From positions 1 through 64,000 of IMG/VR virus record IMGVR_UViG_3300035501_000350: a stretch of DNA of 64,000 bases; one strand, 5' to 3'. The notes under the pieces were generated by a model that did not search any database, was not told where the DNA came from, and saw only the letters and a program-made list of their open reading frames with translations. Source of the DNA: a virus. Lineage: Duplodnaviria; Caudoviricetes. Shown piece after piece: positions 21,381 to 38,231 of the stretch. Each line of letters begins with the position of its first letter. Position 1 is the stretch's first letter. A program made the position numbers and the translations under genes.

Positions 21381-22133
21381 TTAACCTAATAAGAAGCGTG
21401 GACGAACGCCATAGGAATTGTTATATCCATTGTTATCGCTAGCACTTCCATTAGTATATACACAGCAGAAGTTAGTTGTACCACAGCAATCTCTTTCCCA
21501 ATATTGTTTAGCATTTCCATTATAATACCCAATCTTTAAATCAGAATTTTGTTTAAACCCAGGTAATTGATAGTTAAGCAAACCACTTATATTTTTAGAA
21601 TAAGTTTTCTTACCGAATACTTCCATTTCATTCATTAATATGGATCTTACGGATACGGTAGTAGTGCTAGTACTATTATCTGTGGATACTATCTCATTAT
21701 AAGACAATAGATGATCTCCAAATATTGCATATAAATTAGAATCTATTGTTGGTATTACTGTAGAATACATATAAGATCCTTTATATCCTGAAGTATTGGA
21801 ATTAGATTTAGTCATCTTATTTAACTTAAATATCTGATCTGGTACTATTAATACATGGTGCCTACTGGATATGCCGCTTTCAGATATACCATAATATGGA
21901 TTTATATCCATAACTCTAAAAGTAATAATAGTACTATTATATGTAGCAGTAAAGTAATCTCCTACGTATAAATCCGTAAATTTACCTGATGATATTCCAT
22001 GAGATTTGATGAATGAATCTATATTATCAACAGATACTGTACCTAAGTCGTTACCTCTATATATTTTATACACTGCTATATTAATAGTTTCTTCTGTTTT
22101 TATAGATTTTCTATATTCATGTATAACTCCCAT
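21381..22133 (-). CDS. adhesin family A (CLec-fold/DUF6273-like putative receptor-binding protein); second gene of its cassette
   Basis: YRGNDLG, DLYVGDYF, HHVLIVPD, C-terminal GVRPRFLLG shared with 6 paralogues. Confidence 0.75.
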   Translation of the reverse strand: MGVIHEYRKSIKTEETINIAVYKIYRGNDLGTVSVDNIDSFIKSHGISSGKFTDLYVGDYFTATYNSTIITFRVMDINPYYGISESGISSRHHVLIVPDQIFKLNKMTKSNSNTSGYKGSYMYSTVIPTIDSNLYAIFGDHLLSYNEIVSTDNSTSTTTVSVRSILMNEMEVFGKKTYSKNISGLLNYQLPGFKQNSDLKIGYYNGNAKQYWERDCCGTTNFCCVYTNGSASDNNGYNNSYGVRPRFLLG

Positions 22134-22153
22134 ATTTATCTCCCCTAATATGA

Positions 22154-22711
22154 CTAACTTGCTTTTTCATAATAATAATCAGCGCCATCTATAGTTATAA
22201 TACAATAGTCTCCATACGCTGAACCTTCTATTAAAGTTCCATTTTCTGGTAGACTACCAGTAGAAGATGTTATAGACCCATAACTGGTAGAACCTTTAGA
22301 GTACGTTGTTTTGCTAATTTTACTGGATGCTAATTCTAACAGTTGATATGTTATATAATCATAACCTGTACTGCTATTTTTACCAGTATCAGTAATCTCT
22401 CCATATTGGTATACCATTGTTTCCCACATACCACCATCATAGTACCCTTCAAGCTCTTCTACACTTTTTGTTGTTTCTCCTGTTAGAGTAAGCCCTTCTG
22501 TCGATGTATAATTATACCCGGTATAAACAGTAGTTGTCTTTCCCCAATTTTTAACATAATTAAAGGTTGATTCAGATGTATGATTGGTACGTTCTGGATA
22601 TTCATATGTATATGTAGTGTTAGAGTCGCAATTATACTTATTCCATGTTACTATATCAACGGTATTAATAGTATATGATGTAGGGAAGTACCTTTCATAA
22701 ACTACACCCAT
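22154..22711 (-). CDS. adhesin family B (WNKY...YSKGST...LPE.GTLIEGS putative tail-tip protein)
   Basis: Tyr/Thr/Ser-rich with conserved termini shared by 6 paralogues; starts after site 22727-22748. Confidence 0.7.
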   Translation of the reverse strand: MGVVYERYFPTSYTINTVDIVTWNKYNCDSNTTYTYEYPERTNHTSESTFNYVKNWGKTTTVYTGYNYTSTEGLTLTGETTKSVEELEGYYDGGMWETMVYQYGEITDTGKNSSTGYDYITYQLLELASSKISKTTYSKGSTSYGSITSSTGSLPENGTLIEGSAYGDYCIITIDGADYYYEKAS

Positions 22712-22726
22712 ATAATAGCTCCTTAC

Positions 22727-22813
22727 AAATAGTTAGAAAGTCTATTAAAAAATTAATTCAGATGCCGTACTAGGGCATCTGGAGAACTTTTCTAATTAAC
22801 TATATAACTATTT
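22727..22813 (+). repeat. 87-bp spacer S1 (two outward-facing 22-bp sites around a hairpin)
   Basis: aaatagttagaaagtc...cagatgcc-gtactag-ggcatctg...tatataactattt; identical to 29265-29351. Confidence 0.95.
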
Positions 22814-22826
22814 GGAGGTACCTACT

Positions 22827-23633
22827 ATGGGAACAGTGTATGAATATAGAAATTGGAATACTGGAGATTCTGGCTCTGATTCTTCTAATAGTTATGACAC
22901 ATCTATTGCCGTTCAGCATAAAGTATATAGAGGTAATGATTTAGGCACTGTATCTGCTGATAATATAGATAGTTTTATAGAAGAGCATGGAATAACCACA
23001 GGTAAATTTACAGATTTATATGTAGGAGATTATTTTACTGCTAAATATCCTGTGTATAATGGGACATATTTATATACTGTTAACTTTATAATTATGGATA
23101 TAGACCCGTATTGGGGCATACATGAAAGTGGTATTGGCGATAAACATCATATATTAATTACTTCAAATCTTGGCTTAGATAGTTCTAAAATGACTACAAA
23201 TCCTAGTACTAGTACTAATAAAGAAGGTTATTTAACTACATATGCATTTTCAACAGTAATACCAACCATAGATACCAATTTATCTGCAATATTTGGAGAT
23301 CACCTACTATCTTATAATGAGATTGTATCTTATAATAATACAACAGGCATTTGCATGGTTTCTGTAAAATCTATATTAATGAATGAGATAGAAGTATATG
23401 GGAAAACATATTATTCTGATAATCCTAGCGGTTTACTTAATTACCAATTACCTGGGTTTGCTCAGAATTCTGATTTAATACCTTTATTTGATGATGAAGG
23501 CGCATATCCATCATGGTACTTAAGGGATAATTCAGGTTACTCTTTTTGCTATGTACTGTACGATGGTTCTGCACAAGTTAAGAATTATACAAAAAATAGT
23601 GAGCATATGCGCCCACGTTTCTTATTAGGTTAA
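22827..23633 (+). CDS. adhesin family A paralogue (start MGTVYEYRNW)
   Basis: family A motifs, ends MRPRFLLG; GGAGG RBS directly after the site. Confidence 0.75.
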   Translation: MGTVYEYRNWNTGDSGSDSSNSYDTSIAVQHKVYRGNDLGTVSADNIDSFIEEHGITTGKFTDLYVGDYFTAKYPVYNGTYLYTVNFIIMDIDPYWGIHESGIGDKHHILITSNLGLDSSKMTTNPSTSTNKEGYLTTYAFSTVIPTIDTNLSAIFGDHLLSYNEIVSYNNTTGICMVSVKSILMNEIEVYGKTYYSDNPSGLLNYQLPGFAQNSDLIPLFDDEGAYPSWYLRDNSGYSFCYVLYDGSAQVKNYTKNSEHMRPRFLLG

Positions 23634-23678
23634 ACTTACATTCATCCTCTTAGACATTTATATAATTATCTAGGGGAG

Positions 23679-24107
23679 ATGAAATGTATGTTTAAAAAGA
23701 TCGGTAAAGGTCTTATATTATTCTCTATTGGTGGGTTTCTATACATGCTTATAGAGATTATTTATAGAGGATATACTCATTGGACTATGGGCATTCTAGG
23801 TGGATTAATGTTTGTTTTAGTGGGTTGTATTAATGAGTATTTACCATGGGATATGTCTATAATACTTCAATCTATTATAGGTTCTATTATGATTACTACA
23901 GCAGAGTTTATTGCTGGTTGTATATTGAACATATGGTTAGGATTGCACATATGGGATTACTCTAATCTTCCTGGAAATATCTTAGGACAAATTTGCCCTC
24001 AATTTAGTATTGCTTGGTTAGGAATATCTGTAGTATGCATTGTATTAGATGACTATTTACGGTATTTTTTATTCGGCGAAGAAAAACCCCATTATAAATT
24101 AATATAA
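23679..24107 (+). CDS. putative ABC-transporter type IV (CmpB-like) membrane protein
   Basis: 4 TM segments; YRGYTHWTM and WDYS.LPGNILGQIC motifs, often seen near Firmicute phage tail genes; own GACA-N6-TA motif. Confidence 0.75.
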   Translation: MKCMFKKIGKGLILFSIGGFLYMLIEIIYRGYTHWTMGILGGLMFVLVGCINEYLPWDMSIILQSIIGSIMITTAEFIAGCILNIWLGLHIWDYSNLPGNILGQICPQFSIAWLGISVVCIVLDDYLRYFLFGEEKPHYKLI

Positions 24108-24148
24108 GATCCCCCAGATGGTATTGGCCATCTGGGGTCAATTAATGA

Positions 24149-24910
24149 TTATCCTAATAAGAAACGCGGGCGAACGCTAACTGAAGCATCGTCATCATCA
24201 CAGTTACTTAATCCTTCACCATCGCTATCTATAATAAAAAAAACATTGCCAAAAGAATCTCTTATGTAATAGAAATCGTCGTCAAGTTCTATTAAATTAG
24301 GATTATATTTAAATCCTAGTAACTGATGGGTAATCATACCATGCGACTCAAACCCGAAATTTTTTCCGTATAGTTCTATAATGCTCATTAATATAGATTT
24401 AACCAGTACCGTAGTAGTGTTAGCTTTATCAGGGACTTCATAAGAAGCATAATTTTTACTGTTACTAGTAGTTATTATTTCTTTATGAGATAGCAAATAA
24501 TCACCAAATATATTTTTTAGGGCGGCATCTATTTTAGGCGTAGTGGTTTTATACATATAAGTACCTGCATATCCATTACTGCTATATCCTATACGCGATG
24601 TAGTAATAGGTTTGTCTGGTACTATTAATATATGGTGCTTACCTGCAATCCCGCTGTCAGATATATCATAATATGGATCTATATCCATTATTCTAAAATT
24701 AATATTTGAACCATCATATTTAGCGGTAAAATAATCACCTACATATAAATCTGTAAAATACCCTTTAGATATACCATGCTGCTTCATGAAATCCCCTATT
24801 GTACTAGAAGTTACAGTTCCTAAATTGTTACCTCTATAGGTCATGCAGTCAGTATTAAGCAGATTATTATCTTTATTTATCTTTTGATTCTCATAGAATA
24901 TAGCTCCCAT
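24149..24910 (-). CDS. adhesin family A paralogue (start MGAIFYENQK)
   Basis: family A motifs, ends SVRPRFLLG. Confidence 0.75.
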   Translation of the reverse strand: MGAIFYENQKINKDNNLLNTDCMTYRGNNLGTVTSSTIGDFMKQHGISKGYFTDLYVGDYFTAKYDGSNINFRIMDIDPYYDISDSGIAGKHHILIVPDKPITTSRIGYSSNGYAGTYMYKTTTPKIDAALKNIFGDYLLSHKEIITTSNSKNYASYEVPDKANTTTVLVKSILMSIIELYGKNFGFESHGMITHQLLGFKYNPNLIELDDDFYYIRDSFGNVFFIIDSDGEGLSNCDDDDASVSVRPRFLLG

Positions 24911-24931
24911 ATAACTAATTATCCTATTCAC

Positions 24932-25019
24932 AAATAGTTATATAGTTAATTAGAAAAGTTCTCCAGATGCCCTAGTACGGCATCTGAATTAATTTTTTAA
25001 TAGACTTTTTAACTAATTT
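24932..25019 (-). repeat. spacer S2 (reverse orientation, 88 bp)
   Basis: reverse complement of S1 with 1 substitution and 1 insertion, both in the right-hand site. Confidence 0.95.
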
Positions 25020-25035
25020 GTAATGAGGTTTATAT

Positions 25036-25806
25036 ATGGGTGTAGTTTATGAAAGTGGCCATTTTATGGCTGGTAATAGTGCAGCATCTGGTGGCGGCAA
25101 TGCATCTACTGCTATAAATACAGAACGTATGATATATAGAGGAAATAATCTAGGCGAAGTATCTATTAGTAATATAGATACATTTATGATAAATCATGGG
25201 ATATCGGAAGGATATTTTACAGATCTATGTATAGGAGATTATTTTACTGCATCTTATAGTGGAACCACTACTACATTTAGAGTAATGGATATAGATCCAT
25301 ACTATAATATATCTGAAAGTGGTATTGCTGGCAAACACCATATACTTATTGTGCCAGATCAAATATTAACTACATCATATATGAATTCTACCAAGACCAG
25401 CAGTACAGGTTATAAAGGTTCTTATATGTTTACTACAACTATACCTTCAGTAAATAGTAATCTTAAAAGCATATTTGGTATCTACTTATTGTCCCATAAT
25501 GAAATTGTATCTACAAATGATAGTACTGGTACAGATACTGTATCTGTCACATCAATATTAATGAATGAGATTGAAGTATCTGGAGAAACAAAGTATTCTG
25601 TAGCATCTTCTGGTACTATTTCTCAATTATCTGGATTTAAACAGAATTCAAGCCTAAAAGCATGTGGGGACCGATATTGGGAGAGAGACGTTGGTAGTGG
25701 GCAATATTATTTCTGCTATATAAATGAAAATGGCTATCTCGATGGTGGTAGCACTGCCCCCGCATCCGCCTCCTATGGTGTCCGTCCACGTTTTTTGTTA
25801 GGGTAA
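25036..25806 (+). CDS. adhesin family A paralogue (start MGVVYESGHFMAGN)
   Basis: family A motifs, ends GVRPRFLLG. Confidence 0.75.
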   Translation: MGVVYESGHFMAGNSAASGGGNASTAINTERMIYRGNNLGEVSISNIDTFMINHGISEGYFTDLCIGDYFTASYSGTTTTFRVMDIDPYYNISESGIAGKHHILIVPDQILTTSYMNSTKTSSTGYKGSYMFTTTIPSVNSNLKSIFGIYLLSHNEIVSTNDSTGTDTVSVTSILMNEIEVSGETKYSVASSGTISQLSGFKQNSSLKACGDRYWERDVGSGQYYFCYINENGYLDGGSTAPASASYGVRPRFLLG

Positions 25807-25929
25807 TCTGGCCAATATTACCTATTTGGATAACTTATGGGTGGCAAGCATGGGCGCATGATAAATATATTACAACAAGACAAAAAAATAAAGGTGGGAG
25901 TGATCCCACCTTTATTTTATGCATATGCA

Positions 25930-26454
25930 TTACTTCTTTTTGCTACCAGCGATAGATAGAAGTTCTCTTGCCAGAATGTCGATAACCTCTTGAGCATCAG
26001 TCTTATCAATAGACTGGAAACTTGCGAGGATGATGCCGACCTGGTAGTCGCTAAGATGCCGCCCGTCTTTGAGCTTGAGGTTTTCCAGACGGTTCTTAGT
26101 GGATAGTCTACCCTGCTCAATGCTGCCAGGCCGCAGCAGGTTGCTGTACATATCGCTATCAGCGATGATCATCCAGGTGTTAGATCCACCGGAATAGATG
26201 AGGACAACGCTGTTATCCTCTGCGATGTATTTGCCATATTTCTGTGCTTTGAACATGATGTTGTAAACTGCATCATTATCGAAGTATTCGATCAACCGCT
26301 TATACACCTCGATAGTGATAAGACCGCTAACAGAATGCATGGACCTGCGCTCTCCGGTAATCGGGTCGGTAACGATATCGATCAATCTTGTTTTGCCAGC
26401 GACAATATCGCCAATCAATTCATCATTTGTGAATACTACACCGTATTCGTCCAT
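25930..26454 (-). CDS. hypothetical early-type protein embedded in the cassette array
   Basis: AGGAGG RBS, TATAATATA motif at ~26500, visibly more GC-rich codons than its neighbours. Confidence 0.7.
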   Translation of the reverse strand: MDEYGVVFTNDELIGDIVAGKTRLIDIVTDPITGERRSMHSVSGLITIEVYKRLIEYFDNDAVYNIMFKAQKYGKYIAEDNSVVLIYSGGSNTWMIIADSDMYSNLLRPGSIEQGRLSTKNRLENLKLKDGRHLSDYQVGIILASFQSIDKTDAQEVIDILARELLSIAGSKKK

Positions 26455-26607
26455 TATTTTATACCTCCTAAGATTTATGGTTGATTTGTTTACACTTATA
26501 TATTATATCATCTTATTGATTAGATTTTACATATCGCGGTACAACTCCCAGATGGAATTAACCATCTGGGAATCATACTCGAAGGTTTTTTGGACGATAG
26601 AAGCGTG

Positions 26608-26685
26608 TGGTGGACCCTCAGGGGCTTGAACCCTGGACCTCGCAAATTATGAGTTTGGTGCTCTAACCAACTGAGCTAAGGGTCC
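26608..26685 (-). tRNA. tRNA with CAT anticodon, most likely tRNA-Ile2 (lysidine-modified, reads AUA)
   Basis: GGACCCT acceptor stem, TAGCTCAGTTGGTTAGAGC D-arm, CTCATAA loop, GGTTCAAG T-loop, encoded CCA; resembles Bacillus-type Ile2 more than Met tRNAs. Confidence 0.88.
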
Positions 26686-26741
26686 TAATATCATCTACTA
26701 CATTTATGTATGACAGATGATATTTTTTTAAATAATTGTGA

Positions 26742-27254
26742 TTACTGTTTGGTGTAGTAATAATAAGTACTTTTGATTTTTATAACGCAATAGCTACCAT
26801 TTGCCGATCCTTCTATTAACGTACCTTGTTCTGGTAATTCTCCTGGTTTAGCTGTTACTGTTCCAATAGTAGAACCTTTAGAATATTTAGTTTCACTATA
26901 TACATCGCATACAAAATAATAACCAGTGTAGCAATAGTAACCATTATCTATATTATTTAATGCCCCATATAATTCTACATTTTCTCCATAATGGCCCTGA
27001 TCATAATACCCTAAAGCATCACTTCCTCTTACAGAAGTTTGCTCAGTTAAAACAAATCCATTAGTTGAATCAAATGTATACGAAGCATAAACTGTACATA
27101 CGCTATTTCCCCATAAAGTAGTATTTCCTTTACTTGACTCGTCATACCTTGGATTGTAATAAGTTTTTGTAGTGCTGGTTTTACATTTATACTTATTCCA
27201 TGTAACTAGTTTAGTTTTAATTAGTTTTTGATTCTCATAGAATATAGCCCCCAT
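26742..27254 (-). CDS. adhesin family B paralogue (start MGAIFYENQKLIKTKLVTWNKY)
   Basis: family B motifs. Confidence 0.72.
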   Translation of the reverse strand: MGAIFYENQKLIKTKLVTWNKYKCKTSTTKTYYNPRYDESSKGNTTLWGNSVCTVYASYTFDSTNGFVLTEQTSVRGSDALGYYDQGHYGENVELYGALNNIDNGYYCYTGYYFVCDVYSETKYSKGSTIGTVTAKPGELPEQGTLIEGSANGSYCVIKIKSTYYYYTKQ

Positions 27255-27277
27255 TTATAATCACTAATCCTATTCAC

Positions 27278-27364
27278 AAATAGTTATATAGTTAATTAGG
27301 AAAGTTCTCCAGATACCGTATTACGGTATCTGAATTAATTTTTTAATAGACTTTCTAACTATTT
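27278..27364 (-). repeat. 87-bp spacer S3 (reverse orientation)
   Basis: 5 differences from S1, 4 of them in the hairpin, which still pairs (cagataccgt-att-acggtatctg). Confidence 0.95.
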
Positions 27365-27380
27365 TGTAAGGAGCTATTAT

Positions 27381-27923
27381 ATGGGTGTAGTTTATGAAAA
27401 ATACTTTAACCCTACCTCATACGCTAATAATACTGCCGATGTAGTATTATGGAATAAGTATGGCTGTAATTCATCATATACTATCACTAGGTATTACGAC
27501 CCATGTACAATGCAAGGGGTATACGTTAAAAGTAGCAATTGGTTTAATGTTAGTGTAGGCACTGGGTACGGATTTTCAGAGTCTAGTGGGTATTATTTAA
27601 CAGGATCATCAAATATGAACTCTAGAACTAATGATGCAACAGGGTATTATTCAACTGATGACGAGAACGTGTATGTATTATCAATATCAGATACATCAGT
27701 TTTTAATGGCAGCACAGTATACAACTATAATATGACAGCAGTAGCTAGTTGCTCTACTGAAGGATATTACACATATTCTAAAGGTTCTACTAGTTATGGA
27801 TCCATAGCATCTTCTAGCGGTAAATTACCTGAAGATGGTACTTTAATAGAAGGCTCAGCAGATGGAGATTATTGTATTATAAATGTAAATGGAAATTATT
27901 ACTATTACGAAAAACAGAGTTAG
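27381..27923 (+). CDS. adhesin family B paralogue (start MGVVYEKYF)
   Basis: family B motifs. Confidence 0.72.
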   Translation: MGVVYEKYFNPTSYANNTADVVLWNKYGCNSSYTITRYYDPCTMQGVYVKSSNWFNVSVGTGYGFSESSGYYLTGSSNMNSRTNDATGYYSTDDENVYVLSISDTSVFNGSTVYNYNMTAVASCSTEGYYTYSKGSTSYGSIASSSGKLPEDGTLIEGSADGDYCIINVNGNYYYYEKQS

Positions 27924-27941
27924 GTATTAAGGGTGTTATAT

Positions 27942-28460
27942 ATGGGAGCTATACATGAGTACAGAAAATCTATAAAAGTTAATAAATGGGAGAAATTTAA
28001 TGTTTCTACATCAACCGCTACAAGATATAGAGAAGTTAGTAAATCTAGTGCGTACAGCACTACAACTACAGGGTCTGTTACTTATTATGATGATTATTAT
28101 GTAGACCCGATACTTGGTTTAAAGTCTGATGCAAAGCATAACGCACATGCAGGATGGATACTGGGTACTGCTAGTTCCACTATGTATTATTTTTATAAAT
28201 ACAATGGTACTAATATAATATGTACAATAAACATGGTAAGTGGAAGTAGTAATAATTATACTATTTGGCTTACTGCTATATCGTATGTTGAATCATACTC
28301 TATTACAATATATTCTAAAGGCACTACACCATACGGTAATATAATAACTAAAGTTAATAAATTGCCTGAAGAGGGTACTTTAATAGAAGGCTCAGAAGAA
28401 GATGGGTATTATGTAATAGAAATAGATGGCATATCATATTATTATGAATTAATTAAATAG
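27942..28460 (+). CDS. adhesin family B paralogue, second gene of its cassette (start MGAIHEYRKSIK)
   Basis: family B motifs; N-terminus shared with family A gene 21381-22133. Confidence 0.72.
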   Translation: MGAIHEYRKSIKVNKWEKFNVSTSTATRYREVSKSSAYSTTTTGSVTYYDDYYVDPILGLKSDAKHNAHAGWILGTASSTMYYFYKYNGTNIICTINMVSGSSNNYTIWLTAISYVESYSITIYSKGTTPYGNIITKVNKLPEEGTLIEGSEEDGYYVIEIDGISYYYELIK

Positions 28461-28510
28461 TATGAACCCAGGTGAATTAATTCACCTGGGTTGCTAATAT
28501 ATTTTAGATA

Positions 28511-29251: not shown

Positions 29252-29264
29252 AGTGGGTACCTCC

Positions 29265-29351: not shown

Positions 29352-29373
29352 GTGAATAGGATTAGTGATATAA

Positions 29374-30051: not shown

Positions 30052-33000
30052 TTAAGAAACAACTTCCCAAGTAAACTCAACTGCTACAGTTGGAGCTTCT
30101 TTAGCATAGAACTTAATACCGCCAGCAACAGTCTCAGAGAAGTAATGGGTATCCCATGCTTCCTGCTGAGCATCACCAGTATCGGTATCAGTAGTACTAA
30201 TTACAGGGGATATATGAGCTCTAAGATCAGCAGTAAAAGTACTTATAGATACAGTGCATGTATACAACCCACTAGTACTATCGGCAGTCCAAGAATCACT
30301 TGCGGGTATAGTAGCAGTACCACTTGTTACAGCAGCTTTGCCATTTGCTAAATCATAAGCAGTCTTAACAGCAGAAGGAGTAGCCGCCAATGCAGTAGAT
30401 GTAGAAGAAGTAGAAGAACTAAGCTTTACGGCGCCATAGTATGTTGTAGTAGCCTTACCAATAAGCATCTGCCAAGCAGAACCATCGTACTCAAAATCTA
30501 CAACCTGGTTAGTAATCCATGCTCTTGCAGGAACAGCAGTGGTACCATACCAATAAGCAGTAATATCTCCAGTATTATTTACGTTAAGAGTAATTCCTGA
30601 TGTTGTACTATAATTAGTAAACTTAACAGAAATTCTAGCGTTAGTAGATAAAGTAAATCCTTCGCACTCTACAACCTTGGCTGCAGTTGCTGCTGCAGTA
30701 GAACAAGTGCCGTACCACATATGCATAGCAGAGTTGCCGGTATGATCGGTAAGATCACTTGCAGCGGCTCTAGAAGTATCAGTGGGGTGAACGTGATCAG
30801 ATCTAGCGACAGTACTAGCAGATCCTACAGCTGCGGTACCATCCATAGAAGGATTGCTAGTAGAGTAAGATACATGAGTGCCGTGGCTAGAAGCAGCAGC
30901 TCCTACATCAGATGCACTAAGGGTAATATCTGCACTTAATGCTTTACCATTAACTGTTCTAGATGTCGGTACTGCACCAATATCAGACAATACTTGAGCA
31001 GGAGTCTTCTCTGTCACAGCACTAGTACCATTACCAACAATATAAGAACCAGAGGTAATACTAGATTTACCAGTACCGCCACTGCTTACAGCAAGGGTGC
31101 CTTCCATTGAACCAAGAGAAGTGGTATTATCATTCACCCACGGTACGTTTACTGCTAGATAACCAGACTTATCTACAGATACAGGATAAGTTCTAGAAGC
31201 AGTATTAGTCTGAGCAGCAGCATCAGCAGTTAAAGCAGTCTCACTCTTAAGCTTAGCCTTAATAGTACCAGTGGTAGAGATATCTCCTCCAGTAAGGCCA
31301 ACTCCAGTAGAAACCTTAGTAACAGTACCAGTATTTGCTGTAGCGCCTTCTGCAATCTTAGAGAGCTTAGAATAATCAGAAGCACTCATAAGACCTCTAG
31401 TAGAATCAGAAGCATTAGAGTAAGTGGTATCCTTAGCAGCAATAGTGATATTACCGCTAGTATCAGTACTAATAGTAACATTATCTCCAGGAGCAATATT
31501 CACTGCAGCACTATCAGAACCATCATATTTTACTAATTGAGCATCATTTACTTTAATAGTAATGGGATTGGGGTTCTTAAGGCTGGTGTACGTAGTATTG
31601 CTAGAAGCAATTTTAAGATTACCATTTGCATCTGTAGTTACAGAAGTAGCTCCAGAACCTGTTACTTTATGTGAGCTGCGGACTGTGCCATTCTCGATAT
31701 GGTTAATATAAACACCATCATTACTAAGAGCAGTAGATGTATCAGTAGTAGCCGTATCACTACCAGCAACAACAGTAGAGCTAGTATGATGGGTATCAGT
31801 TACAGTCTCTTTACCAGTTCCAATAGCAGTTACATGGCCAAAGTCATCAAGAGTAACACTATTAACATAGGTTCTGCTAGCAGCAGTGATATTACCCTGA
31901 GAGGAAGTATCTGCATGAGAGATAGTTCTAGTACCAGAAGTGGTAATAGCAGCAGTGCTATCAATATTCAAGCCATTTCCGACCTTAAGAGTAATGCTAG
32001 TTACAGTTCCATCAGGTTCATCACCAGAAGGAATTAGAGTCCACTGGTAAGTTCCATCTCCAGACTGTCCACAGATAAACACATCACCAATCTTAGCAGA
32101 CTGACCACCATAAGTGCCAGCAGTAATAACCTTATAGGTATAGCCAAGCTGGTCTTTAGATGCAGCGGTAAGAGAACTAACAGTACCGTCAGTACCAAGA
32201 GTACCCTTAAAGACCATAGAAGTAGATACAGTTGCTGCAAGATCATCTAATTCAGCCTTAGTAGCAAAAGTAGTTCCCTTAGTAAGAGTAACAGTATGGT
32301 TAGACAGGCTAATATCTGTTACTGCATTACCACTACCTGTAGTTGTACCCTTAGAAAGAGTAGTCTCTGCAGGCAAAGTAATAGTCTTATCTGCCGCTGC
32401 AGTAACTCTACCCTTTTCATCTACAGTAAGGTTAGGAATTACAACAGTACCACCATGAGTAGCAGTCTTGGTTTCTGTCTGGCCATAAGTACCAGCTGTA
32501 ACACCAGACTTAGACAGTGTTACAGGAACACTCCAACCCTTCTTAGAGGAATCAGAAGTACCAGTAGCATCACCAGTAAGAACTACAGTGGTACTACTAC
32601 TAAACTCTGTAGCAGATACGGCATTAGCATCAGATGCCAAAGCTCCTACATCGCTAGGAGTAAGAGTGATATCAGCGCTTAATGCTTTACCATTGACTGT
32701 TCTCGCTGTTGGTACAGCACCAGCTTGAGCCGCTGTTACTTTATGGGGATTGCTAGTATTACCGATATGAGAAATCTCATCAGCAATAGCCTTCTGAATC
32801 TTACCCATAGAAGTGGATAAAGTCTCACCACTAGTCAATGTAGCAAGAGTGCTAGCGGCAGTATATGTAGGAGTTTGGTTATTTGTAGTTACATTGGGTA
32901 CATTACCTAAACCTACCTGAGATGCTGTAACCTTATGGGGATTAGAAGTATCACCAGTATGAGTATTAAGATTAGTCTGTACTGCTTGAGTATCTGCGCT

Positions 33001-34038
33001 TGCAGTAGAAGCTGCAGATTCAATAGCGTCAGAAAGAGCCTCATAATCAGTATCAATTCTAGCCTTAAGAGAATCCTTAGTGGTGCTATCAGACTTTGCT
33101 ACTCTAGCGCCCTCAACTTCAGTAGCCTCAGCAGCACCAATCTGAGTTGTAGTAACGCTATGAGGATTGTTAGTATCTCCAGTATGAGTATTAAGATTAG
33201 TCTGCACAGTCTGGGATTCATTATGAGCTGTAGTGGCATTACCACTAATAGTGTTAGCAAGTGCGTCATAGTCGGCATCAATTCTGTCTTTAAGAGAATC
33301 CTTAACCACACTATCAGACTTAGCAGTTCTTGCAGCTACCATCTCAGATGCTTCAGCAGCACCAATCTGAGTAGTTGTAACTCCATGAGGGTTAGATTTA
33401 TTAGAAGTATGAGAATCTAAGTTCTTCTGTACAGCCTCAGAACCAGCACTAGCTGCAGAGCTAGCGTTATTGATTTTGTTCTCAAGGGCAATATAATCTG
33501 CGCTGAGACGGTCAGAAAGAGTTGACTTAGTAATATCATCAGACTTTGCTACTCTAGCGCCCTCAACCTCCGATGCTTCAGCAGCACCAATTTGAGTAGT
33601 TGTAACTCCATGAGGGTTATTAGTATTATTGGTATGAGTATTAAGATTAGTCTGTACTGCTTGAGACTCATTATGAGCTGTAGTAGCATTACCACTAATG
33701 GTATTGGTAAGAGCGCTATAATCAGCATTGATTCTATCATTAAGAGAACTCTTAGTTTCTCCATCCGATTTAGCTGTTCTAGCCCCTTCTACTTCAGCAG
33801 CCTCAGCAGCGCCAATCTGGGTTGTAGTAACCTTATGAGGGTTATTAGTATCTTTAGTATGAGTTCCTATAGTACCCTCAACATTACTGATACCGCCAGA
33901 TATATCTTCATCAATTTGCTGTAATTTCTTTTCTACGGTGCTACCATCATAGGACACCATATCAGAAGATGTTTTTGGGTATATAAAATGCATAATACCA
34001 TCTATATTTTTAGATAGCGTGGCTTTCTCAATAGCCAT
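30052..34038 (-). CDS. long tail fibre protein
   Basis: 1328 aa, Thr/Ser/Ala/Gly-rich; HT...NPHxVT repeats, VGLGNV, two RTVNGKALSADITL motifs, ARSDHVHP, AATPSAVKTAYD fibre motifs. Confidence 0.88.
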   Translation of the reverse strand: MAIEKATLSKNIDGIMHFIYPKTSSDMVSYDGSTVEKKLQQIDEDISGGISNVEGTIGTHTKDTNNPHKVTTTQIGAAEAAEVEGARTAKSDGETKSSLNDRINADYSALTNTISGNATTAHNESQAVQTNLNTHTNNTNNPHGVTTTQIGAAEASEVEGARVAKSDDITKSTLSDRLSADYIALENKINNASSAASAGSEAVQKNLDSHTSNKSNPHGVTTTQIGAAEASEMVAARTAKSDSVVKDSLKDRIDADYDALANTISGNATTAHNESQTVQTNLNTHTGDTNNPHSVTTTQIGAAEATEVEGARVAKSDSTTKDSLKARIDTDYEALSDAIESAASTASADTQAVQTNLNTHTGDTSNPHKVTASQVGLGNVPNVTTNNQTPTYTAASTLATLTSGETLSTSMGKIQKAIADEISHIGNTSNPHKVTAAQAGAVPTARTVNGKALSADITLTPSDVGALASDANAVSATEFSSSTTVVLTGDATGTSDSSKKGWSVPVTLSKSGVTAGTYGQTETKTATHGGTVVIPNLTVDEKGRVTAAADKTITLPAETTLSKGTTTGSGNAVTDISLSNHTVTLTKGTTFATKAELDDLAATVSTSMVFKGTLGTDGTVSSLTAASKDQLGYTYKVITAGTYGGQSAKIGDVFICGQSGDGTYQWTLIPSGDEPDGTVTSITLKVGNGLNIDSTAAITTSGTRTISHADTSSQGNITAASRTYVNSVTLDDFGHVTAIGTGKETVTDTHHTSSTVVAGSDTATTDTSTALSNDGVYINHIENGTVRSSHKVTGSGATSVTTDANGNLKIASSNTTYTSLKNPNPITIKVNDAQLVKYDGSDSAAVNIAPGDNVTISTDTSGNITIAAKDTTYSNASDSTRGLMSASDYSKLSKIAEGATANTGTVTKVSTGVGLTGGDISTTGTIKAKLKSETALTADAAAQTNTASRTYPVSVDKSGYLAVNVPWVNDNTTSLGSMEGTLAVSSGGTGKSSITSGSYIVGNGTSAVTEKTPAQVLSDIGAVPTSRTVNGKALSADITLSASDVGAAASSHGTHVSYSTSNPSMDGTAAVGSASTVARSDHVHPTDTSRAAASDLTDHTGNSAMHMWYGTCSTAAATAAKVVECEGFTLSTNARISVKFTNYSTTSGITLNVNNTGDITAYWYGTTAVPARAWITNQVVDFEYDGSAWQMLIGKATTTYYGAVKLSSSTSSTSTALAATPSAVKTAYDLANGKAAVTSGTATIPASDSWTADSTSGLYTCTVSISTFTADLRAHISPVISTTDTDTGDAQQEAWDTHYFSETVAGGIKFYAKEAPTVAVEFTWEVVS
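32935..33860 (-). repeat. 225-bp (75-aa) tandem repeat in the tail fibre, 4 full units
   Basis: NPH codons at 33843, 33618, 33393, 33168 and 32943, exactly 225 bp apart; ABAB similarity pattern. Confidence 0.9.
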
Positions 34039-34078
34039 TTATAACACACCTCCTGTGCGGTTTAAAACCTATATATTT

Positions 34079-34876
34079 TTACTTAATAACTTCCCATGTA
34101 AATTCAACAGCGACAGTAGGTTTCTCTTCGGCATAGAACTTAATACCGCCATTTACTGTCTCTGAATAGTAATGAGTGTCCCATGCTTCCTGCTGAGCTT
34201 TGCCTGTATCTACATCTGTTGTACTAATAACAGGAGTAATATGTGCTCTTGTATTAGAATCAAAAGTATCAATAGATACAGTGCAAGTATACAACCCATT
34301 GGTAGTATTGCTACTCCAGCTGTCAGAAGACGGGACTGTTGCTTTATTTGAGGTTACTGTAGCCGCACCAATGAGAGTAGGGCTAATCTCATGCGGATTA
34401 GGGTTATTCTTTGTATCCATATGATTATTAAGAGCATCATTGGTATCGCTTACAGCTTCAATGATGGTCTTATGTTCATCATACATGATGGTTGTACCAG
34501 AATTTATATTAGTAATATCTGTATTTATGCCTTCGATTAATTCATCAATTTCTTTGATTTTTTCATTGATAGTAGTTTCGCCCTCGTAGACAATCTTATC
34601 GCCACTAGATGCAGCAACTGTATCCTGGATGACTGTAAGATCTGTAGAAACCTGAGCAAGATCAGCAAGTAATCTTTCATTAAGACTAGATCTTTCTTTG
34701 CCATCACATTTTGCTACTCTAGCTTCAGCTATTTCATCATTCGCTGAATTGATCTTATCTTCTACAGTATTGTCGGTATCAAATTCTACCATATCAGCTG
34801 TAGTTTTTGGGTAGATATACTCTACAACACCATCGACTTCTTTAGCCAATGTAGCCTTGTTAATAGCCAAAATCAT
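34079..34876 (-). CDS. short tail-fibre paralogue
   Basis: shares the N-terminal KATL.K..DG....IYPKT..DMV motif and a near-identical C-terminal domain (AQQEAWDTHY...PTVAVEFTWEV) with 30052-34038. Confidence 0.8.
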   Translation of the reverse strand: MILAINKATLAKEVDGVVEYIYPKTTADMVEFDTDNTVEDKINSANDEIAEARVAKCDGKERSSLNERLLADLAQVSTDLTVIQDTVAASSGDKIVYEGETTINEKIKEIDELIEGINTDITNINSGTTIMYDEHKTIIEAVSDTNDALNNHMDTKNNPNPHEISPTLIGAATVTSNKATVPSSDSWSSNTTNGLYTCTVSIDTFDSNTRAHITPVISTTDVDTGKAQQEAWDTHYYSETVNGGIKFYAEEKPTVAVEFTWEVIK

Positions 34877-34891
34877 TGCCCTCCTTTATAT

Positions 34892-34912
34892 AGTAATTTA
34901 CTATATTGTTCG
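34892..34912 (-). promoter_or_regulatory. late-type promoter (AACA-N6-TA) for the tail-fibre operon
   Basis: cgAACAatatagTAaattact on the minus strand just upstream of the AAAGGAGG RBS; matches a motif recurring before other late-type genes. Confidence 0.7.
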
Positions 34913-35024
34913 ATCTAAGAGGGTAGCCCTGTCCATGTAAAAAATGGTTAAATTGTCTTATTCCGTTGATTTAGTAAGGGTCTGAACATTAAAGTATAAA
35001 TACCCTTATAAGGAGTGATAGAAA

Positions 35025-35840
35025 TTGCGTTTACACATTGGTGAAGAATCCTATGCAGCAAAGAACATTTCCCAGTCTAAACCTGCCGGTACATGGGTTA
35101 AGCTTACCGTTATTGATTACGCTTCTATAGAGAATTTCCCTGAAGAGATTACTGGTGTTCTCTCTGTGCGGTCCGATAATGGATTTGAGCTTTGCACTAT
35201 TGATACTTCTAAATATGCTAGACATACCTTTGTTGGTGGCGTTCTTACATTTACTAACGAGCCTGAGCCTGTTGTTGTAGAGCCTGTGGTATATACGCCT
35301 ACTGTTGAAGAGGTTAGAGCTAATAAGATTAGCGAGATGTCTAGCGCATGTAATAGTACTATTGTTGCTGGTATTGATGTTAATGGTGAACACTTTGCTC
35401 TTACCGTAGAGGACCAGATTAATTTACTTACATTGCTTTATATGGCCGATAGTGGTCTTGAGACTATTCCTTATCATCGTGATGATGGTAGCTGTGAGTA
35501 TTACACAGCTGAGCAGTTTAAGACTATTGCTGAGGCTGCTACTAACTATAAGCTCTATCATGAGTCCTATTTCAACTCTCTTAAGGATTATATTAAGTCT
35601 CTTGAAGATATTGAAACAATTCAGTCTATCTATTATGGTATTGAGATTCCTGAGGAATACCAGTCTGTTGTTCTCAAGGATCTTATTGCAGCAATGCCTG
35701 TTACTGAAGAGCCTGAAACTGTTGATAGTTCCGAAGAAGAAACAGATATAGAAGATGCTGGTGAGGAAGAAACTGATGGTTCTGATGAAGATGCCACCGA
35801 AGAAACCGAAGAGCCTGCCGAGGATAATGCCGAAGAGTAA
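35025..35840 (+). CDS. DUF4376-like tail-fibre-associated protein with acidic tail
   Basis: KISEMSSACNSTIVAGIDV..EHFALTVEDQINL...PYHRDDG.C motif; own AACA-N6-TA motif at ~34985. Confidence 0.7.
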   Translation: MRLHIGEESYAAKNISQSKPAGTWVKLTVIDYASIENFPEEITGVLSVRSDNGFELCTIDTSKYARHTFVGGVLTFTNEPEPVVVEPVVYTPTVEEVRANKISEMSSACNSTIVAGIDVNGEHFALTVEDQINLLTLLYMADSGLETIPYHRDDGSCEYYTAEQFKTIAEAATNYKLYHESYFNSLKDYIKSLEDIETIQSIYYGIEIPEEYQSVVLKDLIAAMPVTEEPETVDSSEEETDIEDAGEEETDGSDEDATEETEEPAEDNAEE

Positions 35841-35879: not shown

Positions 35880-36401
35880 CTATTCAATTAATACGTAATA
35901 GTAGTATGCGCTGTCAATTTGCAATACATAATACCCGTCTTCTTCCGATCCCTCTATCAATGTTCCATTTTCCGGCAATCCTCCAGATTTAAATTTAAAA
36001 TTACCATATCTTGTATTGCTTCTATAGTATATTTTACCTGAATTAGCTGTAATATAAGCTATACAGTCCATATAGTATGAAGTCATTTTATTATATGTAA
36101 CAGTTTTATTTACAATTCCGACATATGTTTTATTAGTACTATCTGTATATATCATATACACAGTGTTACTTTGTATATATGTGCTAGATGGTGCTCTAAT
36201 TGTTGAATCCGTACAGTATCCTTTGTATTTATCAAAATAATAACTTTCACAGAATGTAGCACTTTGTGCTCCTGAGCTTACGGTTTTAGCGTATTCTGTT
36301 TGTTTATACACGGTTCCAGTTGTAACAATACAACTATATTTTGCCCATACTAAACCACTAGTACTGGTAATGCTATTTCCATAAGTGTATACTGTTCCCA
36401 T
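35880..36401 (-). CDS. adhesin family B paralogue, second gene of its cassette (start MGTVYTY)
   Basis: WAKY...LPENGTLIEGSEEDGYYVLQID. Confidence 0.7.
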   Translation of the reverse strand: MGTVYTYGNSITSTSGLVWAKYSCIVTTGTVYKQTEYAKTVSSGAQSATFCESYYFDKYKGYCTDSTIRAPSSTYIQSNTVYMIYTDSTNKTYVGIVNKTVTYNKMTSYYMDCIAYITANSGKIYYRSNTRYGNFKFKSGGLPENGTLIEGSEEDGYYVLQIDSAYYYYVLIE

Positions 36402-36414
36402 ATCAAACACCAAC

Positions 36415-37035
36415 TTAAACTTGTTTTGTGTAACGATAATAAGCATTGTCTATCTGTAATACTAAATAATCTCCATCTAAAGAGCCATCAACTAAAGTTC
36501 CTTCTTCAGGGTAGCATCCTTCATCTGCGTATACATATTCAACGCCGCCATAGCTAAATGGTTCTGGATATGTAATAGTTGTAACTCCTGCCTCAGCTAC
36601 AGCTAACATAGTTGAAGTGTTAAGATATATAGAACCATAACTTACAAAATACCAGTCAAGTGTAGATTGTATTTGATATAGTAATTGGGTTTTACCATCA
36701 TCTACATAATACTTACCTAAAATATTTTGAATTGTATCACTATAAACTGGATTTGTAACGGTAAACCCATTATCAGAATCGAATGTATATGAATCCCCGG
36801 TAGTGATATAAGATTTTGCCGCTTGTATATCTTCCAACTCTGCATCATTCGCAAGATTGCCCTGGCAGCAAACAACCGACATATTTGATTTAGGTGTAGA
36901 ATCAGTTATTACATATGATGAATATTGTGTTTCCTTTGTTGCTGTGTGCTTTCTATACAATACAGTACTAGGATAATTATTACTTTTTGGCGGCGCAGCC
37001 ATACCACTAAATTGTTTTTTATACACTGTTCCCAT
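36415..37035 (-). CDS. adhesin family B paralogue currently next to the promoter segment (start MGTVYKK)
   Basis: YPEEGTLVDGSLDGDYLVLQIDNAYYRY; GGAGG RBS directly after site 37049-37070. Confidence 0.7.
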   Translation of the reverse strand: MGTVYKKQFSGMAAPPKSNNYPSTVLYRKHTATKETQYSSYVITDSTPKSNMSVVCCQGNLANDAELEDIQAAKSYITTGDSYTFDSDNGFTVTNPVYSDTIQNILGKYYVDDGKTQLLYQIQSTLDWYFVSYGSIYLNTSTMLAVAEAGVTTITYPEPFSYGGVEYVYADEGCYPEEGTLVDGSLDGDYLVLQIDNAYYRYTKQV

Positions 37036-37298
37036 AGTGGGTACCTCCAAATAGTTAGAAAGTGAACTAGTTATTTGTTTGTATTTTGTTTTTCGGCAAC
37101 CTTAAGGGCTCATCTTTCAACTTTCTCTGCCGCCTCAGAAGGCCGGATTACCCCGTGTAATCCTTAAAAATTATAGTAAAAATGATTAATGTTTTCTGTG
37201 AAATTTAGCGGGACGATATCGTCATCATATCGTCAGCTCGCTTTTTACGTGAGTTCTAGAAAAGTTTCATTGTTCAAAGGCAACTACTCCTTTCAATA

Positions 37299-37319
37299 AG
37301 TAATTTACTATATTGTTCG
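37299..37319 (-). promoter_or_regulatory. late-type promoter inside the invertible segment
   Basis: 21/21 identical to the tail-fibre promoter at 34892-34912. Confidence 0.7.
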
Positions 37320-37361
37320 GTGTATCACAGAGTACATGAAGAATTAAAGCAAAAAATATCA

Positions 37362-37390
37362 CTCTGTGGAGCAATCCACAGAGATTTTTC
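37362..37390. terminator. terminator hairpin behind the promoter
   Basis: ctctgtgga-gcaa-tccacagag with T-rich tracts following on both strands. Confidence 0.7.
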
Positions 37391-37436
37391 AAAATTCATC
37401 TAGTTCACTTTCTAACTATTTATAACGAGGTTTATA

Positions 37437-38231
37437 ATGGGAGAAATCTATGAAAGTGGCCATTTTATGGCCGGAAACCCTAATGCATCATCAAGTGGTA
37501 GTGCAAATTCTATACAATCTCTTAAATCTACTTTTTATAGAGGTGCTAATTTAGGCACTATCGCTTCCTCTACAATTGATTCATTTATTACTGAACATGG
37601 TATAGCAGCTGGAACATTTGATAATTTATTTATAGGAGATTTCTTTACTGCTACGTATAGTAATAACACTACTATTTTTAGAGTGATGGATATAGATCCA
37701 TATTATGATATATCCGATAGCGGCATTGCTGGAACTCATCATATATTAATAGTACCAGATACAGAGCTAACAACCGTAAGCAATACCAATAATAAGAGTA
37801 GTGATGGGTATACTAATTCTTATGTGCATAAAACAGCAATACCAACTATAAATACTAAGTTAAAAGCTATATTCGGATCTCATTATTTATCTTATAAAGA
37901 GAAACTATGTACAAGTTCTATGAATAGTACTTTTGCATTAGTATCTGTAAATAGTGTATCGATGGATGAGGTAGAGATATTTGGAAAAGCGGTTAATCAG
38001 AATACCGACTATGGATTATTACGGTACCAATTACCGGCATTTATGTACAACCGCGATCTAATAAAATCATATAGCTATACTACTCATAATGGAACTATGT
38101 ATTGGACAAGAGGCCGGTATTCTAGTAACTTTTGTGTTGTTTCAGCTGGTACAGCTGATAATGGATATAGTTATTATAGCACCACTTCAACTTATGATAT
38201 TGGCGTTCGTCCACGTTTCTTATTGGGTTAA
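37437..38231 (+). CDS. adhesin family A paralogue (start MGEIYESGHFMAGN)
   Basis: family A motifs, ends GVRPRFLLG. Confidence 0.75.
   Translation: MGEIYESGHFMAGNPNASSSGSANSIQSLKSTFYRGANLGTIASSTIDSFITEHGIAAGTFDNLFIGDFFTATYSNNTTIFRVMDIDPYYDISDSGIAGTHHILIVPDTELTTVSNTNNKSSDGYTNSYVHKTAIPTINTKLKAIFGSHYLSYKEKLCTSSMNSTFALVSVNSVSMDEVEIFGKAVNQNTDYGLLRYQLPAFMYNRDLIKSYSYTTHNGTMYWTRGRYSSNFCVVSAGTADNGYSYYSTTSTYDIGVRPRFLLG

Follow-up and report, generated by a model that had tools for sequence, protein, structure and literature searches.

The array of adhesin-like genes at 21381-38231 of the window (the whole 64,000-nucleotide stretch of DNA analysed here) most likely expresses alternative receptor-binding proteins from a single expression site. 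It belongs to an AR9/S6-like gut jumbo phage with two clear promoter classes, whose contig of 119.9 kb (119,917 bp) represents an estimated 38% of the genome. Thirteen paralogous adhesin-like genes of two families occupy the array, as the first-pass annotation had claimed, six of family 1 (starts at 21381, 22827, 24149, 25036, 28511 and 37437) and seven of family 2 (22154, 26742, 27381, 27942, 29374, 35880 and 36415). That annotation had read the locus as a promoter shufflon, in which inversion between repeated 22-bp sites would bring one whole gene or another under a single promoter. Its observation of such sites beside paralogous genes was borne out by our pattern search and paralogue comparison, and every anatomical prediction of the shufflon holds, several of them sharpened, but its decisive prediction, alternative junctions, was absent where we looked. 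We regard an inversion switch as a tentative reading of the locus, with somewhat less than an even chance of being correct. The cassettes lie on both strands:

21381-22711, minus strand: cassette unit behind the site at 22727, a family-2 gene (22154-22711) then a family-1 gene (21381-22133), with a terminator at 21334-21362
22827-23633, plus strand: family-1 cassette behind the site ending at 22813
24149-24910, minus strand: family-1 cassette behind the site at 24932
25036-25806, plus strand: family-1 cassette behind the site ending at 25018
26742-27254, minus strand: family-2 cassette behind the site at 27278
27381-28460, plus strand: cassette unit behind the site ending at 27364, two family-2 genes (27381-27923 and 27942-28460)
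28511-29251, minus strand: family-1 cassette behind the site at 29265
29374-29997, plus strand: family-2 cassette behind the site ending at 29351
35880-37035, minus strand: promoter-adjacent cassette unit, two family-2 genes (36415-37035 and 35880-36401)
37437-38231, plus strand: family-1 cassette that follows the right type-C site, at the terminator end of a 373-bp segment

Receptor binding is a plausible function for the products of these genes, each of which opens with a short N-terminal tag, MG-x-x-Y/F/H (13 of 13). Family 1 matches DUF6273 (PF19789, 25.9 bits against a cut-off of 23.5). The product of 28511-29251 was modelled with a pLDDT of 90 as a disordered N-terminal tag (residues 1-22) followed by a C-type-lectin-like domain, and the model resembles the N-terminal domain of the T. 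ramosa IgA peptidase (9qa6; Z 13.6, rmsd 2.4, 163 aligned), the C-terminal domain of Legionella Lcl (8q4e; Z 8.1) and TvpA, Mtd and many C-type lectins (Z 5-6). Family 2, of ~180 aa, is a type of distal tail-fibre protein, and its relatives occupy the tail-fibre slot of Firmicutes myophages, between the baseplate and lysis genes of ordinary myophage contigs.

All ten 22-bp sites were recovered with the previously proposed pattern (yTArTwvACTwTmTAACTATTT), compared with 0.02 matches expected by chance from shuffles. Five sites face left (beginning at 22727, 24932, 27278, 29265 and 37049) and five face right (ending at 22813, 25018, 27364, 29351 and 37421), in strictly alternating orientation; nine positions are as first reported, while one right-facing copy, which has two mismatches, ends at 25018 and not at 25019. 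Each copy immediately precedes a ribosome-binding site, 13-23 nt from the start codon, so that 10 of the 13 paralogous genes are served in this way. The invariant core of the ten sites is 15 nt, with no extra copy in the 119,917-bp contig beyond the array, and a scan of public collections for the site returned single chance matches only. The sites fall into three subtypes (A, B and C) that have only a 9-15-nt core in common. Four of the site pairs span 87 bp including the sites themselves, and at their centre, exactly 43 nt from either outer end, is a 21-nt palindrome:

22727-22813: spacer 1, with a left-facing type-A site (22727-22748), an 11-nt linker, the palindrome (22760-22780, 21 nt), a second 11-nt linker and a right-facing type-B site (22792-22813)
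24932-25018: spacer 2, flipped relative to spacer 1 and 98% complementary to it, with type B on the left, a type-A variant (2 mismatches) on the right and the same hairpin
27278-27364: spacer 3, oriented as spacer 2, its hairpin longer in the stem and with a compensatory replacement of G-C by A-T
29265-29351: spacer 4, oriented as spacer 1

Terminator-like hairpins (-13 to -16 kcal/mol, z -3.8 to -5.9) lie 10-16 nt upstream of nine of the ten sites, and the sole site without one is the promoter-adjacent site at 37049.

The promoters of this phage are readily recognised by motif. The late motif, ACA-N6-TA, has 30 matches in the start-site window compared with 3.9 expected and agrees with the AR9 late consensus (PMC5312081), while 17 genes score at least 15 bits (15-24 bits) on a 22-nt AT-rich model of the early class. 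All five non-cassette transcription units within 20-36 kb have a late or early promoter at the usual distance. The non-cassette genes in and around the array include:

13840-15069: UvsX-like recombinase
23688-24107, plus strand: gene for a membrane protein, preceded at 35 nt by a late promoter of its own
25930-26454, minus strand: early gene with an early-class promoter (18.7 bits)
26608-26685, minus strand: tRNA-Met
within 30052-35840, minus strand: tail fibre of 1328 aa and a short paralogue of 265 aa, with a canonical late promoter at 34899-34910
35025-35840, plus strand: DUF4376 tail-fibre-type protein with its own canonical late promoter

Among the cassette genes, recognisable promoters are confined to the 373-bp segment, where both point leftward into 36415-37035 and 35880-36401; by motif, the site at 37049 is the only one with canonical promoters. 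For the eight spacer cassettes, no late motif occurs within 100 nt and early-model scores do not exceed 0 bits, and the cassette at 37437, to the right of the 373-bp segment, has no canonical promoter by motif. The 22-bp sites themselves contain no ACA-N6-TA and do not match the AR9-type late consensus (AACA-N6-TA/G, start ~21-36 nt before the ATG). Thus the earlier suggestion that four site pairs enclose an 87-bp hairpin spacer with no clear promoter was correct, as neither promoter class of the phage matches there. The fifth pair had been credited with a single late-type promoter; a late promoter is indeed present, but as two leftward matches, P1 and P2:

37049-37421: 373-bp segment, a candidate expression site or invertible promoter, bounded by type-C sites at 37049-37070 and 37400-37421
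37306-37317, minus strand: P1, a late-promoter match within 21 nt (37299-37319) that copy the tail-fibre promoter (34892-34912) exactly
37068-37079, minus strand: P2, a NACA-N6-TA late-promoter match that abuts the left site
37362-37383: terminator-like hairpin, bidirectional, located 16 nt inward of the right type-C site

The two type-C sites are inverted repeats of each other without a mismatch (22/22), with 329 bp between them. The copy at P1 reaches into the leader and Shine-Dalgarno sequence, with no ORF downstream. P2 overlaps the left type-C site by that site's first 3 nt and otherwise lies in the inner segment, and its predicted start at 37068 lies 33 nt ahead of the ATG at 37035, the usual distance for late promoters here; judged from this position, the 22-bp site would become a 20-nt 5' leader. 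Contigs from RNA libraries cover the promoter-adjacent cassette at 36470-37020 (run X2) and 36477-36751 (run X5), and no joints were seen in RNA-library contigs.

If the array is an inversion switch, the 22-bp element would be the crossover site of a site-specific recombinase, and recombination of the promoter-side site with any site in the opposite orientation would invert the DNA between them and bring a different cassette under the promoter, the site serving as its 5' leader. A flip of the 373-bp segment alone would choose between the family-2 cassettes on its left and the family-1 cassette on its right. The candidate enzyme is an Xer-like tyrosine recombinase at 74487-75503 of the contig, 37 kb off the locus; it is the only tyrosine recombinase in the contig, with none in or beside the locus, and no match to the serine invertase/resolvase family was found in these 119.9 kb. 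Several observations count against inversion, among them the distance of this enzyme and the lack of a serine invertase in the contig. The nearest phage relatives of the candidate enzyme are annotated small integrases of temperate Clostridia phages, the sites have no consistent dyad symmetry of the kind seen in an Xer-type core, and mosaic breakpoints also fall within the N-terminal coding region, distant from any site. To our knowledge, programmed whole-gene switching is undocumented for AR9/phiKZ-like phages.

In favour of inversion, an identical leader and gene start is found behind type-A, type-B and type-C sites, with homology stopping exactly past the 9-nt core. Site type is tied to leader type, type A occurring with one leader class (3/3) and type B with another (3/3), and tracts of high identity extend across the site ends; this linkage and these tracts argue against frequent exchange at the core. 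We also compared the window with every other assembly that contains a cassette protein, from five JGI samples and three SRA runs, four of the eight with private SNPs. All are 99.95-100% identical to the window and fully collinear over all five site pairs, including the 373-bp segment, which contigs of five other samples cross in the window's orientation. No alternative junction was found in the assemblies of these eight samples and runs, which cannot show minority forms. Contigs of the three SRA-run assemblies and one JGI contig end at repeat starts (spacers, or 34- and 42-nt repeats) and not at signs of heterogeneity. Switching would have to be rare or strongly biased, since one arrangement dominates every assembly.

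The first-pass annotation had presented the switching of whole genes as unknown. This claim is too strong, since the anatomy of the locus matches the vpma/vsp systems of Mycoplasma (M. agalactiae vpma, M. bovis vsp), in which inversion by an Xer-like tyrosine recombinase (Xer1 or Mbr) joins a silent gene to the promoter (PMC2268961). Both have complete surface-protein genes in mixed orientation, a conserved 5'UTR holding the recombination site (identical and ~21 bp in vpma/vsp), a coding region conserved at its N-terminal end and variable beyond it, terminator hairpins in the locus and an Xer-like tyrosine recombinase. A single promoter serves vpma/vsp, and here canonical promoters are predicted by motif at one site. 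They differ in that vpma/vsp belong to a bacterium and encode the recombinase in the locus, whereas here a jumbo phage carries genes of two unrelated folds with a recombinase 37 kb off, the sites form three subtypes and inversion was not seen in assemblies. A distant enzyme has a parallel in C. difficile, where the cwpV/flgB switches are inverted by the unlinked RecV, a distant tyrosine recombinase that serves several switches (PMC7446863).

The 373-bp segment, bordered by short inverted repeats that match perfectly and with outward promoters and a terminator at opposite ends, also resembles invertible promoters such as E. coli fimS, C. difficile cwpV/flgB and Bacteroides invertons. Unlike these, it is accompanied by eight further sites of the same family before other genes, which makes more than two states possible, and assemblies contain one orientation only. 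Shufflons (R64 Rci/sfx; Bifidobacterium prophage Rin, PMC6109161) and the Mu Gin, P1 Cin and p15B Min systems share the multiple short alternating sites and the adhesin or tail-fibre genes, and R64 sfx shares asymmetric sites with one conserved side. However, those systems exchange C-terminal segments in frame with a recombinase adjoining the segment, whereas here the sites lie upstream of whole genes.

The main alternative, only somewhat less probable than inversion, is that nothing is switched. The 22-bp element would instead be a promoter specific to the cassettes, or a promoter-proximal element, recognised by a phage RNA polymerase of yet-undescribed specificity. Each spacer would then consist of back-to-back units of stem-loop terminator and promoter, and all cassettes would be expressed, perhaps at a special time, so that one virion would bear many adhesins of different kinds. 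Phage promoters have this look, with a conserved motif close to the Shine-Dalgarno sequence at a fixed spacing, the intergenic order elsewhere in the genome is terminator hairpin, promoter, Shine-Dalgarno sequence (including another paralogue array at 38.7-41.3 kb), and 7 of 118 late start sites in AR9 lack the consensus (PMC5312081). Yet the element fits neither promoter class, its ACT-N7-TA is unenriched ahead of other genes (2 matches compared with 5.0 expected), no copy occurs elsewhere in 120 kb, and a start at the site end would leave 0-4 nt to the Shine-Dalgarno sequence, far less than in other leaders of this phage. Between two outward-firing promoters, a bidirectional terminator at the centre has no obvious use, and ordinary divergent promoter pairs in this genome have none between them; the presence of P1 and P2 at one site only is also left unexplained.

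Such an element might double as a hot spot of homologous recombination over evolutionary time, like the PeSL cassettes of T4-like phages, which have sigma-70-type early promoters, act by homologous recombination (PMC2839356, PMC4122927) and provide a documented case of modular shuffling mediated by promoter/terminator motifs. In both cases short conserved composites, stem-loop and promoter-like, flank variable genes and mark the joints of unrelated sequences, but the element here fits no promoter class of its phage and is arranged in head-to-head pairs. The single arrangement in all assemblies is consistent with this static reading, and duplication with gene conversion would account for the identity tracts and for the linkage of site to leader.

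Homologous recombination could also act within a single-expression-site system, in place of site-specific inversion. The spacer cassettes would be unexpressed donors, occasionally swapped into the promoter-adjacent position by the UvsX-like recombinase (13840-15069) through identical tracts of 15-42 nt in the site, leader and N-terminal tag, or blocks would be inverted between the inverted spacers. The spacers are inverted repeats of 88-98 nt with 94-98% identity, the copies at 29265 and 37049 have an exact 42-nt tract in common, and the breakpoints within the N-terminal coding region fit such exchange. We nevertheless consider this route improbable, as a rearranged form occurs in no assembly, double-crossover replacement would be inefficient given the low homology (63-72%) at the cassette 3' ends, and strict alternation of site orientation would be unneeded. 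About as improbable is an element that acts in RNA as the leader operator of a translational regulator, or is a relic of former shuffling or a functionless small palindromic repeat: it is predicted to be transcribed as a leader at the sole canonical-promoter site and each 87-bp spacer as a whole is an imperfect palindrome, but an operator requires transcripts and eight cassettes lack a recognisable promoter, the 13 ORFs are all intact and do not differ between samples, and the copies have no flanking target-site duplications and stand, every one, exactly before a ribosome-binding site.

Outside the array, the window holds a seventh family-1 paralogue with neither the 22-bp site nor the N-terminal tag, directly 3' of an endolysin gene that has a late promoter:

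43878-44627, minus strand: family-1 paralogue

All ten 22-bp sites reported in the first-pass annotation lie where it placed them, with 0.02 matches expected from shuffled sequence. The 13 paralogous adhesin-like genes that it described at 21381-38231 were also recovered, six belonging to a family of ~250 aa (family 1) and seven to one of ~180 aa (family 2). The 15-nt core of the site has no further copy anywhere in the 119,917-bp viral contig of which the window is the first 64 kb, and searches with the 22-mer pattern gave one match in public viral contigs and 40 single matches in metagenome contigs, all compatible with chance. The sites stand in pairs, as follows.

22727-22813, left- and right-facing sites: spacer 1, 87 bp
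24932-25018, left- and right-facing sites: spacer 2, 87 bp
27278-27364, left- and right-facing sites: spacer 3, 87 bp
29265-29351, left- and right-facing sites: spacer 4, 87 bp
37049-37421, left- and right-facing sites: 373-bp segment between type-C sites
37068-37079, minus strand: P2, late-promoter match
37306-37317, minus strand: P1, late-promoter match

All four spacers have the same order (site, 11-nt linker, 21-nt palindrome, 11-nt linker, site), with the centre of the palindrome 43 nt from either outer end. Three site subtypes can be told apart: A is always paired with B inside the spacers, and C forms a perfect pair at 37049 and 37421. An identical leader and gene start follow a type-A (29265), a type-B (22813) and a type-C site (37049), and this identity stops exactly past the 9-nt core. 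On either strand the spacer hairpins are predicted to be stable (z -4.7 to -5.9, -13 to -16 kcal/mol). Spacer 3 carries a compensatory stem change, so that selection appears to act on pairing and not on sequence. Strong G+C-rich terminator hairpins stand at every convergent gene junction within the array. No copy of the palindrome was found outside the four spacers, and an operator used elsewhere was dropped because of this confinement; a MITE-like insertion was dropped for want of target duplications. Spacers 1 and 4 share one orientation and spacers 2 and 3 the opposite one, which implies that the block 22814-29264 was inverted, or duplicated in inverted form, at least once in the past. That block is flanked by a large inverted repeat comprising spacer, common leader and the 5' portions of two family-1 genes (22725-22864 and 29214-29353; 140 nt at 84%, then 125 nt at 93%).

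In phage AR9, the late promoter consensus is AACA-N6-TA/G and the early consensus is a long AT-rich motif (PMC5312081). In our contig, ACA-N6-TA was found 30 times versus 3.9 expected within the interval that places the start 15-40 nt before the ATG, and none of its base or spacing variants is enriched. A second, early-type class precedes 17 genes at 15-24 bits on a 22-nt model; at one of these, the ends of RNA-library contigs from four runs differ by no more than 5 nt and lie just 3' of the motif. Between 20 and 36 kb, all five non-cassette units (20200, 23688, 25930, 34079 with 30052, and 35025) are preceded, at the usual distance, by a promoter of one of these classes. The eight cassettes on the spacers match neither the late nor the early class, in agreement with the earlier failure to see a promoter motif there. 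The variant late-promoter pattern ACT-N7-TA that the 22-bp site contains is not enriched, scores on the early-promoter model are at or below 0 bits, and a scan for sigma-70-type promoters yields no more matches than shuffles; all three candidates were dropped.

The 373-bp segment had been credited with a single late-type promoter. Late-promoter matches are indeed present, but there are two of them. P1 is part of a 21-nt exact copy of the tail-fibre promoter that includes the leader and Shine-Dalgarno sequence, but no ORF follows. P2 takes in the first three bases of the left type-C site, and its predicted start lies 33 nt before the ATG, which would make the type-C site a leader of ordinary length. 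A bidirectional terminator lies at the segment's right end, 16 nt from the right-hand site. Given the spacer hairpins, P2 and this terminator, a hairpin therefore precedes nine of the sites and a promoter precedes one. A riboswitch or other known RNA in the segment was dropped (no Rfam match; leader fold z -0.5), as were coding remnants and small ORFs, none of which is convincing.

The array also contains, at 25930-26685, an early-promoter gene (174 aa, function unassigned) and a tRNA-Met. Nowhere else in the region is coverage by four gut RNA libraries as good as at this gene (depth 20-40), and contigs of all four runs stop at 26479-26483, a short way past the early motif. In sample 3300043105 the gene is called as two ORFs (108 and 55 aa), which coincides with a C-to-A change at 26289.

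Family 1 matches DUF6273. Its structural model, built from a 44-sequence alignment (pLDDT 90; an earlier model from only 7 sequences was poor, pLDDT 55), has a disordered tag in the first 22 residues followed by a compact domain. In structural alignment this domain resembles the IgA peptidase of Thomasclavelia ramosa (N-terminal domain; Z 13.6 over 163 residues, rmsd 2.4 A, 23% identity) and the Legionella adhesin Lcl (C-terminal domain; Z 8.1). It also aligns with the Treponema variable protein TvpA (Z 6.3), and with the Bordetella phage tropism determinant Mtd together with dozens of C-type lectin domains (Z ~5). Foldseek alone gave nothing at E <= 0.001 (best 0.0011). Family 2 has no match in Pfam, PHROG or PDB. 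PDB sequence searches returned nothing usable, and neither did the ESM Atlas for family 2. Relatives of family 2 (35-60% identical) occur in ordinary contractile-tail phage contigs of Firmicutes: in the prophage contig L107, baseplate J and a Mu gp48-like protein are followed by a family-2 relative, a DUF6273 protein, holin and amidase, and in two others (L163 and L164) the relative lies ahead of XkdX-type and holin genes. From fold and gene context, it is plausible that both families are distal tail or receptor-binding proteins. The prophage relatives begin with repeats of a G-T-x-Y-x-V type strand, and all 13 cassette proteins open with one such unit, MG-x-x-Y/F/H; this common N-terminus probably serves as a docking strand. 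Both families share the same tag variants, and the site-less downstream genes 21381 and 27942 carry them too. Family-1 relatives in IMG/VR are located in small phages, none being more than 35% identical; the variability of the family-2 alignment precluded a locus scan, and the DUF4376 neighbour has no relative above 48% identity except in the same strain. A seventh DUF6273 member lies outside the array at 43878-44627. This paralogue (43878-45861 region) is directly downstream of an endolysin gene with a late promoter, and the DUF6273 gene of L107 likewise stands two genes ahead of holin and amidase.

The contig, estimated at 38% of the genome and derived from animal gut samples, encodes split multisubunit RNA polymerase subunits, anaerobic ribonucleotide reductase, topoisomerase II, a UvsX-like recombinase and a DnaB-like helicase. 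The beta'-like subunit is ~31% identical to those of the Staphylococcus jumbo phages S6, PALS_2 and MarsHill and 29% to that of phiR1-37, and the phage is therefore a distant AR9/S6-like jumbo phage. Its 1328-aa tail fibre (within 30052-34876) contains four 225-nt (75-aa) tandem repeats at 32842-33816, and the 265-aa protein encoded upstream, with the same N-terminus and last 95 residues (75% identity), resembles a short version of it. The contig holds no serine recombinase and one tyrosine recombinase (74487-75503), closest to XerA, XerC and XerD models and structures; the phage proteins nearest to it are small integrases from temperate phages of Clostridia. The recombinase is encoded 37 kb away from the cassettes, and its neighbours are a multi-HTH protein (weak Cbp1-like match) and an array of promoter-hairpin units. 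This second array (contig 72000-75503, L091:8000-11503, beyond the window) adjoins both proteins and comprises five tandem units, each a late-promoter match, a variable segment and an invariant TTAATT-loop hairpin. Similar stems are seen in the hairpins at 26546-26569 (same loop) and 24112-24137 (CCAATA loop instead).

For the tests of REARRANGEMENT, contigs of other samples and runs were compared with the window, and RNA-library contigs were checked for joints. Cassette proteins were found letter-for-letter on contigs of five other JGI samples (3300036769, 3300043105, 3300043101, 3300043080 and 3300043006) and three SRA runs (SRR11793810-12). Identity of these contigs to the window is 99.95-100%, and they are collinear with it through every site pair reached, the 373-bp segment being collinear in five samples; four of the contig sets have private SNPs, which show four separate populations. 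The short SRA-run contigs end where repeats exceed the 31-nt word (34-nt common leader, 42-nt core-plus-leader repeat, spacers); these ends are assembly effects and no evidence of heterogeneity. At assembly level one dominant arrangement exists, minority forms being below the reach of contigs. RNA-library contigs from four gut metatranscriptome runs showed no joints and bridged no site, and they lack cover at the 21.1-25.4 kb and 27.3-29.7 kb cassettes, gene 37437-38231 and the P1 leader (37049-37305); such contigs drop low-depth and rare forms, so we count none of these absences as evidence. A near-identity DNA search of phage records found no relative, and no more distant strain was present in the phage records, IMG/VR, and viral and metagenome contigs searched.

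We tentatively favor, at somewhat short of an even chance, the reading first proposed for this locus and restated here, a single-expression-site system like vpma/vsp of Mycoplasma. It is possible, and as a joint proposal slightly less secure, that this phage of gut Firmicutes expresses one of about ten silent receptor-binding cassettes of two unrelated folds at a time, that the silent cassettes would be kept behind hairpin insulators, and that DNA inversion between the 22-bp leader sites would join a single late-promoter cartridge to a different cassette. The unlinked Xer-like recombinase may run the inversion, in a phage counterpart of vpma antigenic variation. In support, the sites match no promoter class of the phage, canonical promoters occur at exactly one site with normal geometry, the other nine are preceded by hairpins, and ordinary divergent promoter pairs in the genome have no central hairpin. 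Against it count the uniform arrangement across assemblies, a recombinase that is distant and integrase-like, sites without dyad symmetry, leader types that go with particular site types, and mosaic joints located elsewhere than at the sites.

By analogy with PeSLs, the element might instead be a static, cassette-specific promoter and terminator module that is also a recombination hot spot. This reading also fits, and we rate it somewhat less probable than the first. It would need a third promoter specificity, of which 120 kb hold no other trace, and it leaves P1, P2 and the central hairpins unexplained. An explanation that we have not thought of is improbable, use of silent cassettes through homologous recombination slightly more so, and the other readings that we named are, taken together, slightly less probable still.

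The proposed inversion switch closely resembles vpma/vsp in its complete genes, conserved leader site, conserved N-terminal coding region, one promoter (as judged by motif), terminators and Xer-like recombinase. In Mycoplasma, whole genes are switched by promoter juxtaposition (PMC2268961). The principle is thus not new. A limited literature search found no whole-gene promoter switching in AR9/phiKZ-like phages, and we know of none; possibly, the locus is a new variant.

Phage host range is set by receptor-binding proteins and, to our knowledge, the programmed switches published for phages exchange the tips of a single fibre gene. A switch that carried one promoter from one complete gene to another, across different folds, would be a new form of bet-hedging across hosts by a large lytic-type phage, and vpma-type logic would have evolved outside bacteria too. 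Were the element a promoter, the 13-member adhesin repertoire would have a transcription class of its own, the third in an AR9-like phage, and one would have to ask which polymerase factor recognises it. Both outcomes have a bearing on host-range prediction from gut virome sequence.

The genome has a second paralogue array with portable regulatory heads, at 38311-42377 on the minus strand. It comprises six small paralogous genes in tandem, three of which have nearly the same unit upstream, made up of a G+C-rich hairpin, an AT-rich motif and a Shine-Dalgarno sequence (39688-39749, 40438-40499 and 41220-41281).
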